In this document: one piece after another, positions 5,685-39,967 of the stretch
How positions within the stretch are numbered: position 1 is the stretch's first letter
Layout: each line of letters starts with the position of its first letter
NCBI GenBank assembly: GCA_017396545.1
Contig: JAFQLT010000134.1
Span: forward strand, 1 to 48,759
Source of the DNA: Bacteroidaceae bacterium
GTDB taxonomy: Bacteria > Bacteroidota > Bacteroidia > Bacteroidales > Bacteroidaceae
Length of the DNA stretch: 48,759 bases
Reading direction: 5' to 3'
Translations under genes and position numbers: made by a program
Notes under the pieces: model-generated
Told to the model about the DNA's origin: nothing
The model's database searches: none
Seen by the model: only the letters and a program-made list of their open reading frames with translations

Positions 5685-5690
5685 TGTCAA

Positions 5691-5739
5691 TTGACAGTTG
5701 AAAGTTGACAATGGACAATTGACAGTTGACAATGGACAA
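5691..5739 (+). repeat. Seven tandem heptamers: TTGACAG TTGAAAG TTGACAA TGGACAA TTGACAG TTGACAA TGGACAA
   Basis: Read directly from the sequence. The array begins 7 nt after the TGA stop (5682-5684). TGTCAA/TTGACA forms a 12-nt perfect palindrome at 5685-5696. Confidence 0.9.
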
Positions 5740-5747
5740 TAAAAACA

Positions 5748-5777
5748 AGCCCACAAGGTAGCGCTACCTTGTGGGCT
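5748..5777. terminator. Bidirectional intrinsic terminator hairpin between convergent genes
   Basis: Perfect palindrome AGCCCACAAGGTAGC/GCTACCTTGTGGGCT. The AAAAACA run on its left becomes a U-run for the minus-strand gene. Confidence 0.7.
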
Positions 5778-5805
5778 ATATTGTTGCCTTAATTACTACG
5801 ACCCG

Positions 5806-7704: not shown

Positions 7705-7715
7705 TCTTTTTAGAC

Positions 7716-7924
7716 TATAAAGGAGATAAATGGAGTTAAAGGCCAATAGCTCTTAGGAGTCAGGAGTTAAAGGGAGTTATCGCTTCGCTCTTGGGGAGAT
7801 AAAGGCCAATAGCTCTTTCGCGCGTAATAACTATTGGCATTTAACTCCATTTAACTCCTTCTATCTCCCTTTATCTCCTAAACATTTGGCCTTTATCTCC
7901 ATTTAACTCTCTTTATCTCCTATA
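7716..7924. repeat. Imperfect palindrome of about 209 nt built from 10-nt-period words, filling the adk-obg spacer
   Basis: The words are GGAGATAAA, GGAGTTAAA and GGCCAATAG with their complements. The left half (7716-7815) carries purine-rich words and the right half (7826-7924) their complements (TTTAACTCC, TTTATCTCC, CTATTGGC). Terminal pairing was checked by hand: 7722-7730 with 7912-7920, 7733-7740 with 7902-7909, and 7741-7746 with 7886-7891 after a 10-nt word-sized bulge. Confidence 0.8.
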
Positions 7925-7937
7925 AACAAGAAGAATT

Positions 7938-35078: not shown

Positions 35079-35309
35079 CTTATATATAATATAAAGGTGT
35101 AACTATATATAAAGGTATAGCCTGGAGGAGAAGTCCTCGCCATCCTGTCGCAACTCGGAAAAGATGGGAGCTGTGAATCGCAAAAAACAAGTGGGTGGGG
35201 CAATGTGTTCTTGTTGTAACTCGTGCCGGGGAGCAGTGGTTTGGATGGAAAACGTTGTGCCATGAGAAAGTTTTATATAAAAATACGTGGTAAAATGAAT
35301 AAAATGTTG

Positions 35310-35317
35310 TACCTTTG
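35310..35317 (+). promoter_or_regulatory. Candidate -7 box TACCTTTG for yceD-rpmF
   Basis: Exact TAnnTTTG match about 52 nt upstream of ATG 35369. Confidence 0.45.
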
Positions 35318-35368
35318 TCGCCCGATTGGCTACATCCACTCGGATGCGACCAAAAAAATGGAAAGAAA

Positions 35369-35935
35369 ATGGGTAAGTTTGACAGTTATAAGATAGACCT
35401 GCGAGGGATGAAAGAGGTGGATGCCTCTTACGACTTGAGTGTCGATAACGAGTTCTTTGCCCATATTGACGGCCCCGAGGTGCAGAAGGGCAAGGTGCAG
35501 GTGGCGCTCGACGTACACCGCAGTGTCGATACCTACGAGATGAATTTCGTGCTCGACGGTGTGGTAGTGGTTAGTTGCGACCGTTGTCTCGACGAGATGG
35601 ACCTTGACATACACACTACGGGCAAGTTGCAGGTAAAGCTGGGTGCCGACTATGGTGAGCAGGGCGATGTGGTGATTATCCCCGAGGCTGAGGGAGTCAT
35701 CAATGTGGCTTGGTACATCTACGAGTTCGTGGCGCTGGCAATCCCGATGAAGCACGTACATGCTCCAGGCAAATGCAACAAAGAGATGTCCGGCAAGCTG
35801 AGCAAGCATTTGCTGCGCTCGACCGATGATGAAGACTTCGGCGGAGAGGCAATCACGTTCGGCAATGAGACGGACGAAGCGGAAACCCCAGTGGATCCGC
35901 GTTGGGAAGGTTTAAAGAAAATAATTAATAATTAA
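35369..35935 (+). CDS. YceD/DUF177 family protein (188 aa)
   Basis: It holds the conserved position directly upstream of rpmF and carries the C-x2-C motif (SCDRCLDEM). The start is placed at ATG 35369 (MGKFDSYKIDL). Confidence 0.85.
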   Translation: MGKFDSYKIDLRGMKEVDASYDLSVDNEFFAHIDGPEVQKGKVQVALDVHRSVDTYEMNFVLDGVVVVSCDRCLDEMDLDIHTTGKLQVKLGADYGEQGDVVIIPEAEGVINVAWYIYEFVALAIPMKHVHAPGKCNKEMSGKLSKHLLRSTDDEDFGGEAITFGNETDEAETPVDPRWEGLKKIINN

Positions 35936-35946
35936 AACTAACAGAA

Positions 35947-36132
35947 ATGGCACATCCTAAAAGAAGACAATCGAAGACCAGAACTGCCAAGAGAAGAACT
36001 CACGACAAGGCAGTAGCTCCTACATTGGCCATCTGCCCCAACTGTGGCGAGTGGCATGTATTCCACACTGTATGCGGCGCTTGCGGCTACTATCGTGGAA
36101 AGTTGGCTATCGAGAAAGAGGCTGCAGTATAA
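35947..36132 (+). CDS. rpmF: 50S ribosomal protein L32
   Basis: MAHPKRRQSKTRTAKRRTHDK..CPNCGEWHVFHTVCGACGYY. This is canonical bL32 with a zinc ribbon. Confidence 0.95.
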   Translation: MAHPKRRQSKTRTAKRRTHDKAVAPTLAICPNCGEWHVFHTVCGACGYYRGKLAIEKEAAV

Positions 36133-36151
36133 TCTGCGGCACGTTCGATTT

Positions 36152-36292
36152 AGTTGGGAGTTAGGAATTAGGAGTTAGGAGTTACATGCTCCGTCAAACC
36201 TAAATTCCTAACTCCTAACTTTATTTTAATTCTTGGATACAGTTGAGGGGGCTCCTAACTCCTCATTCCTAACTCCTAACTCCTAATTATTA
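36152..36292. repeat. Heptamer-word inverted array (GTTAGGA/ATTAGGA and complements) filling the rpmF-era spacer
   Basis: The left array is GTTGGGA GTTAGGA ATTAGGA GTTAGGA GTTAC at 36153-36185. Complementary arrays lie at 36199-36220 and 36252-36290. Hand-checked perfect pairings are 36166-36184 with 36270-36288 (19 bp) and 36173-36184 with 36209-36220 (12 bp). Confidence 0.85.
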
Positions 36293-36297
36293 AACCC

Positions 36298-37179
36298 GTG
36301 CACAAAGCAGGATTCGTAAATATCGTGGGCAACCCCAATGTGGGTAAGTCGACACTGATGAACAAGTTTGTCGGTGAACGCATATCCATTGCCACCTTCA
36401 AGGCGCAGACTACGCGTCACCGCATCATGGGAATCGTGAATACGGACGACATGCAGATCGTATTCTCCGACACGCCCGGCGTACTCAAGCCTAACTATAA
36501 GTTGCAGGAGTCAATGCTGCAGTTCTCCGAGTCGGCGTTGCAGGATGCCGATGTTCTCGTCTACGTCACCGACGTGGTGGAGAAGATCGACAAGAACCAG
36601 GACTTCTTGCAGAAGGTGCAGCGCATGGACGTTCCCATCCTGTTGCTCATCAACAAGATTGACATGAGCAATCAGAAGGAGCTTACCGCCCTCGTTGAGG
36701 AGTGGCACGAACTGTTGCCGCAGGCGGAGATTATTCCCATCTCGGCATCGAACAACTTCAATGTTGATGTAGTGCTACGCCGCATCAAGGATCTGTTGCC
36801 CGACAGTCCGCCCTTTTTCGACAAGGACCAGCTGACGGACAAACCCGCCCGTTTCTTCGTCACCGAGATTATCCGTGAAAAGATTCTCCTCTACTACGAT
36901 AAGGAGATACCTTACTCCTGTGAGGTGAGCGTGGAGCAGTTCAAGGAGACGGAGAAGAACATCCACATCAATGCAGTGATTTATGTGGAGCGCGAGTCGC
37001 AGAAGGGCATCATCATTGGCAACCAGGGCAAGGCGCTGAAGAAGGTGATGACCGAGGCACGCCGCTCTTTGGAGCAGTTCTTCGGCAAGAGCATATACCT
37101 CGAAACCTTTGTGAAAGTAGATAAGGATTGGCGCAACTCGGACAAGGAGCTGCGTAGCTTTGGATATAACCTTGAATAA
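36298..37179 (+). CDS. era: GTPase Era
   Basis: GTG start (VHKAGFVNIVGNPNVGKST). G motifs DTPG and NKID are present, with a C-terminal KH domain (VERESQKGIIIGNQGKALK). Confidence 0.95.
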   Translation: MHKAGFVNIVGNPNVGKSTLMNKFVGERISIATFKAQTTRHRIMGIVNTDDMQIVFSDTPGVLKPNYKLQESMLQFSESALQDADVLVYVTDVVEKIDKNQDFLQKVQRMDVPILLLINKIDMSNQKELTALVEEWHELLPQAEIIPISASNNFNVDVVLRRIKDLLPDSPPFFDKDQLTDKPARFFVTEIIREKILLYYDKEIPYSCEVSVEQFKETEKNIHINAVIYVERESQKGIIIGNQGKALKKVMTEARRSLEQFFGKSIYLETFVKVDKDWRNSDKELRSFGYNLE

Positions 37180-37263
37180 AATTAGGAGTTAGGAATTAGG
37201 AGTTGAAACTCCACGAAGCCCACCGCGGCACTAAAAATTCCTAACTCCTAATTCCTAATTTAG
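37178..37263. repeat. Second heptamer-word hairpin (AATTAGG AGTTAGG ...) filling the era-der spacer
   Basis: It starts at the era stop codon. A perfect 18-bp stem pairs 37180-37197 (AATTAGGAGTTAGGAATT) with 37236-37253. An inner 6-bp mini-hairpin is GGAGTT-gaa-AACTCC. The 18-mer differs by 1 nt from the one at 36166-36183. Confidence 0.85.
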
Positions 37264-37269
37264 TAAGAA

Positions 37270-38583
37270 ATGGGAAACTTAGTAGCTATCGTAGGACGCC
37301 CCAATGTGGGCAAGTCCACACTGTTTAACCGCTTCACACAGACGCGCCATGCTATCGTGGCTGATGAAGCTGGCACTACGCGCGACCGCCAGTACGGCAA
37401 GTGCGAATGGACGGGGCGCGAGTTCTCAATCGTCGACACTGGCGGTTGGGTAGTCAACTCCGATGACATCTTCGAAGAGGAAATCCGCAAGCAGGTGCTC
37501 ATCGCCGTGGAGGAGGCCGATGTGGTGCTCTTTCTCGTCGACGTGCAGAACGGTGTCACTGACCTCGACATGCAGGTGGCCTCCATCCTGCGCCGTTCGA
37601 AGACGCCCGTCATCCTCGTGTCCAACAAGACCGACAACTACGATCTGCAGTACAATGCCGCCGAGTTCTATTCGCTCGGTCTGGGCGACCCCTTCTGCGT
37701 ATCGGCACTTACGGGTAGCGGCACGGGTGACCTGCTCGACATGGTCGTCGAGAAACTGCCTGCACCTACCCCCGACGAAGCCGAAGAGGAGATCCCCCGC
37801 TTTGCTGTCGTGGGTCGTCCGAATGTGGGCAAGAGCTCTATCGTGAATGCCTTCATCGGCGAGGACCGCAACATCGTGACCAATATCGCCGGCACTACGC
37901 GCGACTCTATCTATACACGCTATACGAAGTTCGGCTTCGACTTCTACCTCGTCGATACCGCCGGTATCCGCAAGAAGGGCAAGGTGAACGAGGACCTTGA
38001 ATTCTACTCCGTGATGCGCTCTATCCGCGCCATCGAGAATGCCGACGTATGTATACTCATGCTCGATGCCACACGCGGACTCGAGAGTCAGGACCTCAAC
38101 ATCTACTCCCTTGTGCAGCGCAACCAGAAGGGCCTTGTGGTAGTTATCAATAAGTGGGACCTCGTGGAGGACAAGAGCACCAAGGCGATGAAGTACTTCG
38201 AAGACACCATCCGTGAGCGCTTTGCCCCCTTCACCGACTTCCCCATCGTGTTTGCCTCGGCACTCACCAAGCAGCGCATCTTCAAGGTGCTCGAGCTGGC
38301 CAAGGAGACCTACCTCAACCGCAACAACAAGGTGTCTACTGCGAAGCTCAACGAGGAGATGCTGCCCATCATCGAGGCCACGCCGCCCCCATCAAACAAG
38401 GGTAAGTATATCAAGATTAAGTATTGCATGCAGCTGCCTGGCACACGAGTGCCCTCATTCGTGTTCTTCGCCAACCTGCCGCAGTATGTGAAGGAACCCT
38501 ACAAGCGCTTCCTCGAAAACAAGATTCGCGAGCGCTGGAACTTCACGGGTACTCCGATTAATATATATATACGTCAGAAGTGA
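37270..38583 (+). CDS. der: GTPase Der/EngA (double G-domain)
   Basis: Two G-domains (GRPNVGKST appears twice; DTGG and DTAG; NKTD and NKWD) plus a KH-like C-terminus. Confidence 0.95.
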
Positions 38584-38599
38584 TATGAATCTACAATAA

Positions 38600-38640
38600 A
38601 AGGGGAGGGGGTGACTTTGCAAAGTCAGCCCCTCCCTTTC
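38600..38640 (+). terminator. Intrinsic terminator after der
   Basis: AAAGGGGAGGGGGTGACTTT-gc-AAAGTCAGCCCCTCCCTTT with one mismatch, followed by a T-rich tail. Confidence 0.7.
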
Positions 38641-38761
38641 TTTGCCTTTCCGGTTAACGATTTTATGGGCAATGACCCTCGGTTTTCCATGAATGAATGT
38701 TAAAATAGCTTCAGTTTGCCGAAAAACAGATTGTTTTTATTGTTCTTCAATAAATTGTTTA

Positions 38762-39679: not shown

Positions 39680-39838
39680 GGAGTAATAAAAGTTTATTTT
39701 TGGGCTGGCATTGGCACGAGGAAAATCATACATAGGGTGGATTATTGTACATCTGTTCAGGCAAACGTGTACGATTTTGAACCTCGTTCGGCGAATATCG
39801 CAGTGCCAATGCCAGCCCAAAAATAAACTTTTTACTCC
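39680..39838. repeat. Long inverted repeat with 30 bp perfect (36 bp with a 2-nt bulge) around an 85-nt core
   Basis: Arm 1 at 39688-39717 is AAAAGTTTATTTTTGGGCTGGCATTGGCAC. Arm 2 at 39803-39832 is its exact reverse complement. An outer GGAGTA/TACTCC extension adds to the stem. An inner CGAGG/CCTCG pairing lies at 39717-39721 with 39782-39786. Confidence 0.9.
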
Positions 39839-39904: not shown

Positions 39905-39967
39905 GAATCGGACAAAGAGATTTCTCCTCGTCTCTTTGTCCGATTCAAAAAAACTCTTTGTCCGATT
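39905..39967. repeat. 16-bp perfect hairpin plus a third direct copy of its 3' arm
   Basis: GAATCGGACAAAGAGA (39905-39920) pairs with TCTCTTTGTCCGATTC (39931-39946). An A7 run follows, then CTCTTTGTCCGATT again at 39954-39967, followed by TTTC. Confidence 0.7.

Follow-up and report, generated by a model that had tools for sequence, protein, structure and literature searches.

The window analysed here is a 48,759-nt stretch of a Bacteroidaceae genome (contig JAFQLT010000134.1, assembly GCA_017396545.1), whose source lineage is a rumen Prevotella-like bacterium. It carries the genes yceD-rpmF-era-der in this order, all on the + strand, and the 165-nt spacer between rpmF and era (36133-36297) is occupied by an array of 7-nt words and their complements. 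Here, we describe this spacer element, its relatives in the same window and its fate in related strains, and then weigh what it might be. Judged from its sequence, it belongs, as a Bacteroidales representative, to a known class of intergenic hairpins that are built from heptamer repeats and are hypervariable, a reading that fits every feature tested. We hold, with about even confidence, that it is a palindromic intergenic heptamer-repeat element which turns over fast, is not bound to era and has its effect, if any, at the RNA level within a yceD-rpmF-era-der transcript. The features of the locus are:

35947-36132, + strand: rpmF (ribosomal protein L32), stop codon TAA at 36130-36132; PF01783 was found on the identical gene in locus L001
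36134-36143, + strand: 5' strand of an outer helix, CUGCGGCACG, predicted to pair with 36297-36310, era GUG included
36151-36197, + strand: G-rich 5' arm, consisting of the heptamer array 36152-36184 and a non-repeat extension, CATGCTCCGTCAA
36199-36220, + strand: proximal C-rich block, AAATTCCTAACTCCTAACT, partner of 36152-36172 in the predicted co-transcriptional hairpin
36221-36232, + strand: T-rich tract TTTATTTTAATT (T at 9 of 12 bases), a terminator-like tail directly 3' of the proximal hairpin
36243-36289, + strand: distal C-rich 3' arm with the (CTCCTAA)n array 36252-36286, partner of 36151-36197 in the minimum-energy fold
36298-37179, + strand: era (GTPase Era), start codon GTG at 36298-36300 (relatives use ATG at the same codon position), stop codon TAA at 37177-37179

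The spacer reads as (GGAGTTA/GGAATTA)n followed by two blocks of the complement (36203-36220 and 36252-36289), and the arrays lie wholly outside coding sequence, between the rpmF stop at 36132 and the era start at 36298. Tandem Repeats Finder resolves three period-7 arrays: 4.7 copies of AGTTAGG (36152-36184), 2.1 copies of TCCTAAC (36206-36220) and 5.0 copies of CTCCTAA (36252-36286). As is characteristic of the heptamer-repeat class, the unit falls between 5 and 11 nt, is present in at least three copies and makes up an array longer than expected by chance; allowing up to two mismatches, the window holds 13 matches to the 14-mer word pair where 0.21 would be expected. The original prediction had described a spacer of 7-nt words and their complements with two pairings that exclude each other, and all of its coordinates hold: the left array pairs perfectly over 19 nt with the distal block (36166-36184 with 36270-36288, ending 9 nt before the GTG), as can be read directly from the sequence, and over 12 nt with the proximal block (36173-36184 with 36209-36220), which is followed by the T-rich tract, as a repeat search confirmed. 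Both pairings extend further. The distal one reaches 47-nt arms (36151-36197 with 36243-36289) that are 79% complementary, that is, terminal inverted repeats as found in miniature inverted-repeat transposable elements (MITEs), and its 3' arm stops 8 nt short of the era start. The proximal one extends to a 21-bp stem (36152-36172 with 36199-36220).

The predicted fold of the spacer reaches -64.6 kcal/mol, compared with -35.1 +/- 3.9 kcal/mol for shuffled sequences (z = -7.5; 0 of 200 shuffles were as good). When only the segment 36130-36232 is folded, the left array and the proximal block form a hairpin (-39.1 kcal/mol) with a 21-bp stem and an inner 5-bp stem-loop, followed directly by UUUAUUUUAAUU. 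In the full spacer the distal fold reaches -73.0 kcal/mol, against -48.6 kcal/mol with the distal block excluded; the distal pairing is thus better by about 24 kcal/mol, and the bases of the left arm pair distally with a probability above 0.97 at equilibrium. Since the distal block outcompetes the proximal one outright once it is transcribed, the two stems are, on these predicted energies, a kinetic succession and no balanced switch. Across positions -18 to +6, the probability of being unpaired is 0.34 for era and 0.35 for der, compared with 0.79 for the ‘empty’ era allele of locus L213, and the stems in the rpmF-era and era-der spacers both end at about -9 relative to the start codon. A closing helix between a GCGG close to rpmF and era codons 4-5 appears in several predicted folds; it was set aside as unreliable, having only 4 bp outside the window allele and no compensatory change. 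At gathering thresholds, Rfam finds three tRNAs and nothing else in the whole window, and a permissive scan of 35200-38700 returned only far-sub-threshold resemblances to plant and animal microRNA precursors, that is, to generic hairpins.

The rpmF-era element has two sisters in the window, one of them in the next spacer of the same gene cluster and one between adk and obg (flanking genes identified by PF00406 and PF01018, respectively):

37180-37204, + strand: G-rich 5' arm of the second hairpin, AATTAGGAGTTAGGAATTAGGAGTT, beginning on the base after the era stop codon
37236-37261, + strand: C-rich 3' arm of the second hairpin, AATTCCTAACTCCTAATTCCTAATTT, stopping 8 nt before the der ATG at 37270
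7705-7937, + strand: third element, in the adk-obg spacer, built of 10-nt words, G-rich in the left half (GGAGATAAAT/GGAGTTAAAG) and complementary to these in the right half

The era-der hairpin (37180-37261) uses the same GGAGTTA/GGAATTA words as the rpmF-era spacer, with a 31-nt core between its arms, and the core of the adk-obg element has a palindrome of its own, GGCCAATAG...CTATTGGC. The genes on either side of each element share one strand, with the G-rich array after the upstream stop codon and the C-rich array before the downstream start codon. The adk-obg element also varies: in contigs with identical Adk (L219-L228) it measures 233, 264, 348, 363 or 364 nt, modules having been gained or lost on both arms. 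Homologues that include its core are found in the rpmF-era spacer of L211 (81% over 127 nt) and, in opposite orientation, in the era-der spacer of the same locus (88% over 98 nt), and L212 also has a copy; because core-bearing copies thus occur at three spacers and in both orientations, the 10-mer-word element behaves, as far as sequence comparison can tell, as a dispersed and possibly mobile family. For neither heptamer-element core (36185-36251 and 37205-37235) is there a homologue among the 228 loci compared, apart from same-species copies of the same site. The word hairpins stand directly upstream of three genes for ribosome-assembly GTPases, obg (7938), era (36298) and der (37270), each of them downstream of a gene expected to be more highly expressed (adk, rpmF), which may be a coincidence or may reflect a need for throttling. 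Runs of N fall inside the adk-obg element in two scaffolds (L224 and L228): such elements break metagenome assemblies.

Comparison of orthologous spacers shows how little of this is kept. Ten metagenome contigs with identical Era, from ruminant samples, all have the 165-nt spacer, in two haplotypes five substitutions apart; the polymorphism in word copy number for which the original prediction proposed a search is therefore not seen at this site among them. Length polymorphism does occur at 99% Era identity and in the adk-obg element. Close relatives keep the order yceD-rpmF-era-der while the content of the rpmF-era spacer changes completely:

L213, L214 and L216 (Era 95-97% identical): canonical terminator only, GGAAACCGCATC-loop-GATGCGGTTTC then TTTG, the ATG following some 20 nt later; L213 and L214 have complete spacers of 73 nt, and that of L216 ends at the contig edge
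L211 and L212 (Era 99%): spacers of 209 and 322 nt, with the GGAAACCGCATC-GATGCGGTTTC terminator and then the 10-mer-word element homologous to 7705-7937
L215, L217 and L131 (Era 92-97%): spacers of 130-136 nt, with hairpins of GAGTTAA/GAGTGAA/GAGGGAA words and their complements, and no terminator
L218 (Era 87%): spacer of 134 nt with TTAGGAA words and no canonical terminator

The arrays are thus sporadic, being absent from or replaced in the orthologous spacers of close relatives. Compared with L213 there is neither a target-site duplication nor a clean empty site; the terminator and everything up to the start codon are replaced. In almost every relative at 80-85% Era identity, rpmF and era are separated by a gene for a 334-aa FabH, behind which a canonical terminator stands some 30 nt ahead of era. 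The direct adjacency of rpmF and era is seen in the window lineage, L131, L134 and L211-L218, and most of L132-L210 have fabH in between; since most of the 80-85% relatives carry fabH at this position, it was lost from there or moved out. The era-der spacer is equally changeable. In most relatives it is 33-49 nt long with a small conserved hairpin, CGGCTGTGACAGCCG, and in others it measures 3, 27, 79, 90, 125, 176 or 224 nt, with five kinds of content. G+C-rich GGGGAGG...CCTCCCC palindromes recur in the era-der spacer of L213 and L214 (a 224-nt element), in that of L202 (196 nt) and in the terminator at 38598-38643 of the window, pointing to a second hairpin-element family in these genomes. 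The heptamer element itself is not specific to era, as the same words are found in the era-der spacer, a relative with 10-nt words lies between adk and obg, and sibling strains have other contents before era.

Similar arrays are widespread. In about 0.76 Mb of Prevotella-group loci, arrays of at least 2.8 copies most often have a period of 7 (29 arrays, against 15 with period 6 and 12 with period 8); they are mostly intergenic, and many form complementary pairs built from quite different words (TAGTGGT/CACTAAC, CACAGAGGA/CCTCTGTGT, TGCTACAG/ACTGTAGC and TTAAGAG/CTCTTAA). A scan for (TTAGGAR)3, and for that word only, in one genome per species found at least 120 stretches, where we estimate that about 4 exact matches would be expected by chance. 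Among the 80 matches listed, 37 are cyanobacterial (mostly from Nostocales) and 22 from Bacteroidota, and the remainder come from Verrucomicrobia, Firmicutes, Planctomycetes, candidate phyla and others. An exact 12-nt partner lies within 300 nt in 13 of the 143 arrays listed; the other 130 are unpaired. A repeat-based search gave 37 distinct paired arrays (L013-L206 and the window), among them those of Nostoc L013, where (AGTTAGG)7.6 and (TAACTCC)10.7 stand 73 nt apart, and further ones in L031, L098, L068, L066, L021 and Prevotella L028.

These pairs have a common polarity. Where the arms differ in G/C bias, the G-rich arm comes first in 32 of 33 pairs (binomial p = 8e-9), across words and phyla; the order is the same whichever strand is read, and the G-poor array faces outward, to the neighbouring gene. 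In the loci from Bacteroidota, (CTCCTAA)n is read on the sense strand immediately before start codons and the G-rich form comes after stop codons, with L067 as the one clear exception, in which the G-rich form precedes a start codon. At two Bacteroidales loci (L022, 3361-3400; L028, 3092-3135), (CTCCTAA)n is followed directly by CTTTTTAnTACCTTTGC, a promoter-like -7 sequence of the TAnnTTTG type, so that arrays can also adjoin promoters on their upstream side.

Two described groups of repeats come close to what is seen here. Heptamers are the commonest unit of long simple-sequence repeats (LSSRs) in many bacteria, and polymerase slippage has been proposed as their source (Mrazek et al. 2007, as cited in PMC4679880). 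Direct repeats of TAACTGA have been reported from Beggiatoaceae, cyanobacteria and five Bacteroidetes, a ‘forward’ set within a few nucleotides of start codons and a reverse-oriented set after stop codons, with close relatives lacking them at the same sites (MacGregor 2015, PMC4679880). The likeness includes the intergenic heptamers, the TAACT shared by TAACTGA and TAACTCC, the G-poor form lying sense-oriented just 5' of starts and the reverse form after stops, and neighbouring species without arrays. In contrast to the spacer element, nearly all of the TAACTGA arrays are direct repeats without a complementary partner (there is one inverted case in the Beggiatoa genome), none is reported from Prevotella, and the word itself is another. 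The second group, the short tandemly repeated repetitive (STRR) sequences, includes hairpin-forming 7-bp repeats between hupS and hupL in filamentous cyanobacteria of the Nostocales, for which roles in transcript stability, translational coupling and termination have been proposed (PMC2670836). Like these, the spacer element consists of tandem 7-nt units, is hairpin-capable and lies between genes that, as argued below, are probably co-transcribed, and the word pair (AGTTAGG)n...(TAACTCC)n is itself present in Nostoc loci. STRRs are reportedly highly variable between close relatives, as the title of one paper cited in PMC2670836 has it. The spacer element differs from them in that it belongs to Bacteroidales, has its complement in two blocks and hence competing stems, takes the place of a canonical terminator and ends only 8 nt short of the following start codon. 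The claim that no such class was known in Bacteroidetes thus needs narrowing: heptamer direct repeats have been described in five Bacteroidetes (PMC4679880) and hairpin-forming STRRs in Nostocales (PMC2670836), and our literature search found no report of such heptamer hairpin repeats for Prevotella. A full-text search for GGAGTTAGGAG, TCCTAACTCCTAAC and similar words returned unrelated primer sequences only.

The likeness to other elements is looser. The pneumococcal BOX, the REP/BIME and the Correia-type elements are extragenic, form stable mRNA stem-loops from variable modules and can alter the expression of neighbouring genes. They resemble our elements in that the number of internal modules varies, as in the adk-obg element with its 233-364 nt between strains, and differ in having a conserved sequence and many copies per genome, whereas the heptamer hairpins share the word only and no core. 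Foldback transposons of Drosophila and other eukaryotes have long inverted terminal arms made of tandem subrepeats; the arms vary in length, and what lies between them varies or is missing altogether. The arms of the spacer element are likewise built of tandem short subrepeats, but foldback transposons are eukaryotic, kilobase-sized and demonstrably mobile. Intrinsic or partial terminators share with it a hairpin and U-rich tract after a highly expressed gene, here at the site of the siblings' canonical terminator. A typical intrinsic terminator has a G+C-rich stem of about 5-11 bp, a short loop and a U run, compared with an A+U-rich 21-bp stem with an internal loop, a U-rich tail broken by A residues and a stronger competing pairing in the spacer.

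How the element would act depends on the transcript in which it lies. The presumed ends of that transcript are:

35310-35317, + strand: promoter-like -7 box TACCTTTG (TAnnTTTG type), upstream of yceD
38598-38643, + strand: canonical G+C-rich intrinsic terminator AAAAGGGGAGGGGG...CCCCTCCCTTTCTTT, 3' of der, found by an inverted-repeat search

TAnnTTTG is the Bacteroidetes -7 promoter consensus, and matches of this type number 30 in the window against 21 expected. The box at 35310-35317 is, by its motif and position, likely to be the promoter of yceD-rpmF-era-der, and the terminator is likely to be the end of the operon. No + strand TAnnTTTG lies between 35381 and 37155, hence none inside the rpmF-era spacer, and a scan of that spacer found no sigma-70-like site; an internal era promoter was dropped as a candidate on these grounds. 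The promoter-like box before yceD, the motif-free spacer and the terminator after der, together with the gene order, argue for one transcription unit and for co-transcription of rpmF and era. A further promoter-like sequence, TAGCTTTG, lies within the 3' end of era (37155-37162, 108 nt before der) and may be a chance match; if it is active, the entire era-der hairpin would belong to the der leader.

Within such a transcript, we propose the following course of events for the heptamer-repeat element. Replication slippage within the arrays, together with the copying of one arm from the other in a folded-back strand, is its most likely origin; local generation is favoured for the heptamer hairpins because only words are shared between them and because the empty allele differs by replacement and not by insertion. 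In the window lineage it would have replaced the canonical rpmF terminator that sibling strains still keep. When RNA polymerase is at the U-tract (36221-36232), the left array would be paired with the proximal block, and this hairpin with its tract would probably cause partial pausing or termination, or leave a protected 3' end after rpmF. A role as terminator surrogate is plausible because the hairpin is followed by UUUAUUUUAAUU and because the siblings' canonical terminator stands at the same place and is lost in word-hairpin alleles. In RNA that is read through, the distal block should displace the proximal one to give the far more stable stem, which leaves only 8 nt between its 3' arm and the era start, and the predicted outer helix (36134-36143 with 36297-36310) would pair the era GUG itself.

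The expected consequence for translation follows from work on Prevotella. In Prevotella bryantii, structures of -5.2 and -11.1 kcal/mol in the start region reduced protein to 12% and 0.7%, respectively, with relative mRNA little changed at 0.72 and 1.0, whereas a hairpin ending at -21 was harmless; no functional Shine-Dalgarno (SD) interaction was found, and binding of S1 to unstructured leaders has been proposed for Bacteroidetes (PMC3155529). Since Prevotella ribosomes do without SD pairing and respond strongly to structure near the start codon, the modelled folds should strongly depress independent initiation at era as well as at der and make it depend on upstream ribosomes opening the stems. 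The 5' arm of the second hairpin begins right behind the era stop codon, so a terminating ribosome would open much of that stem and couple der to era. At era, a ribosome halted at the rpmF stop codon would have only the predicted outer helix (5' strand 36134-36143) within its reach. On predicted structure, the element could thus plausibly stand in for the rpmF terminator and throttle the translation of era and der. Reading the GGAG words as SD sites, or the CUCC words as mimics of the 16S 3' end, was set aside because P. bryantii has no functional SD (PMC3155529) and because Bacteroidia ribosomes sequester the anti-SD (PMC7797042, PMC13000453).

Several further observations bear on this proposal, and most of them weigh against parts of it. 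The two haplotypes differ by 3.0% in the spacer, compared with 1.6-5.0% at third codon positions of the flanking genes, and the spacer sequence looks near-neutral in its evolution, which supports the main reading but speaks against selection on the RNA. The polymorphisms at the paired sites 36134, 36195 and 36282 are all C/U opposite G, with pairing kept in the sense RNA only, a hint in favour of such selection, but three one-sided polymorphisms are weak statistics, expected about once in eight by chance. For the window spacer, L215 and L217, the sense strand gains 7-8 kcal/mol over the antisense strand in folding, whereas for the era-der hairpin, L218 and the 10-mer elements there is no difference or a reversed one; the comparison, tried as a test of RNA-level selection, gave a mixed picture across elements and was kept as a hint only. 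A consensus terminator scan of the spacer called no terminator: the proximal stem is long and A+U-rich with an internal loop, and the scanner missed the hairpin because of this A+U-richness and because its loop rule is unmet. The era-der spacers of L131, L216 and L217 are 27 nt long and keep only the C-rich arm, so a hairpin before der is not required. We infer the origin in situ from the pattern of shared words, and the 10-mer relatives look more like dispersed, possibly mobile copies. Lastly, the G-first polarity is accounted for neither by slippage alone nor by mobility, although G-poor leaders may simply be what selection tolerates before start codons.

Mobility is also the core of the main rival, in which a non-autonomous foldback-type mobile element, with the word arrays as its inverted repeats, inserts into intergenic hairpins or terminators. 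We consider it unlikely, although several points favour it: the 10-mer-word element has core-bearing copies in the rpmF-era and era-der spacers of L211 and also in L212, the two spacers are filled in no fewer than five different ways among close relatives, strains differ in the number of modules, and a constant G-first polarity would be expected of defined ends. For the heptamer elements the cores speak against it, as they lack homologues outside the same species among the loci compared; copies sharing internal sequence, as MITEs have, are found for the 10-mer-word element and not for them. The terminator has been replaced rather than interrupted, without target-site duplication or clean boundary, and among the same-word arrays listed 130 of 143 have no exact 12-nt partner. 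We know of no transposase associated with heptamer hairpins, though no search for one was made. A broader version, which we think distinctly unlikely, would make all 5'-G-arm...C-arm-3' pairs one self-propagating or mobile foldback-like class that occurs in Bacteroidales, Nostocales, Verrucomicrobia, Firmicutes and candidate phyla, in many cases shares the word TTAGGAG exactly and is made or read by dedicated machinery. Such machinery might be an enzyme that appends the same repeat at both 3' ends of a stretch of DNA, or an RNA-binding protein that recognises heptamers and thereby governs translation in bacteria without SD pairing.

The remaining alternatives give the element a defined function. 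The original prediction saw an alternative-structure layout of the terminator-versus-long-stem kind, and part of it stands: the two pairings exist and compete, a U-rich tract lies 3' of the proximal stem, sibling strains have a canonical terminator at the same position, and a terminator-like proximal hairpin is plausible. A dedicated switch for era, in which the left array chooses between partners in response to a signal, is nevertheless very unlikely. The equilibrium is one-sided, with about 24 kcal/mol in favour of the distal stem and P > 0.97, so that the folds are not of comparable stability as those of a riboswitch or attenuator would be; there is no conserved ligand- or protein-binding region that could act as a sensor, no Rfam family matches, and the layout is absent or different in orthologous spacers at 87-99% Era identity. 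The original prediction had itself named the absence of arrays from orthologous spacers as telling against regulation, and by this criterion a dedicated era regulator fails: arrays are absent from L213, L214 and L216 (95-97% Era identity), with other words or elements in further relatives. Similar arrays also occur in other spacers of the window and in many phyla. The long, nearly perfect predicted stems of more than 20 bp in both spacers might also be cut by RNase III, uncoupling the stabilities of the RNAs at rpmF-era and era-der. The era gene of E. coli belongs to the rnc operon, and RNase III cleaves the leader of that operon. As relatives manage with stemless era-der spacers of 3 or 27 nt, we give this modelled role little credence. 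Finally, the heptamers could be single-stranded RNA or DNA sites for a protein of the S1 or cold-shock type, the C-rich array acting as a ribosome landing pad in a phylum without SD pairing and the G-rich array as its antagonist. G-poor arrays do abut starts in the sense orientation and G-rich ones follow stops, as is also the case for TAACTGA (PMC4679880), many C-type words share TAAC(T), and S1 binding to unstructured leaders has been proposed for Bacteroidetes (PMC3155529). With words that differ widely between elements and strains, the exception of L067, where the G-rich form precedes a start codon, and no protein known, we regard it as highly improbable.

The window has other repeats that fall outside this comparison. 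A period-21 tandem array of GACAATG, GACAGTT and GAAAGTT words (5688-5740) comes right after the stop codon of a 1805-aa open reading frame; it stands without a complementary partner, and a G+C-rich hairpin comes next, at about 5748-5778. A perfect 30-nt inverted repeat, AAAAGTTTATTTTTGGGCTGGCATTGGCAC, with 85 nt between its arms (39688-39832), and three copies of a GAATCGGACAAAGAGA-type palindrome unit (39905-39967) may be further small intergenic elements.

For the heptamer-repeat element of the rpmF-era spacer, the value of the locus is mainly cautionary: a striking layout before the gene of an essential GTPase is transient, strain-specific filler and no conserved control, and the hairpin elements that occupy the spacers before era, der and obg differ between strains with 92-100% Era identity. 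Given how strongly structure at the start codon affects translation in Prevotella, word hairpins may nonetheless allow quick retuning of low-abundance genes that lie behind highly expressed ones. Of broader interest are the G-arm-first polarity (32 of 33 pairs), which goes beyond what slippage would give, and the occurrence of the identical heptamer word in unrelated phyla.

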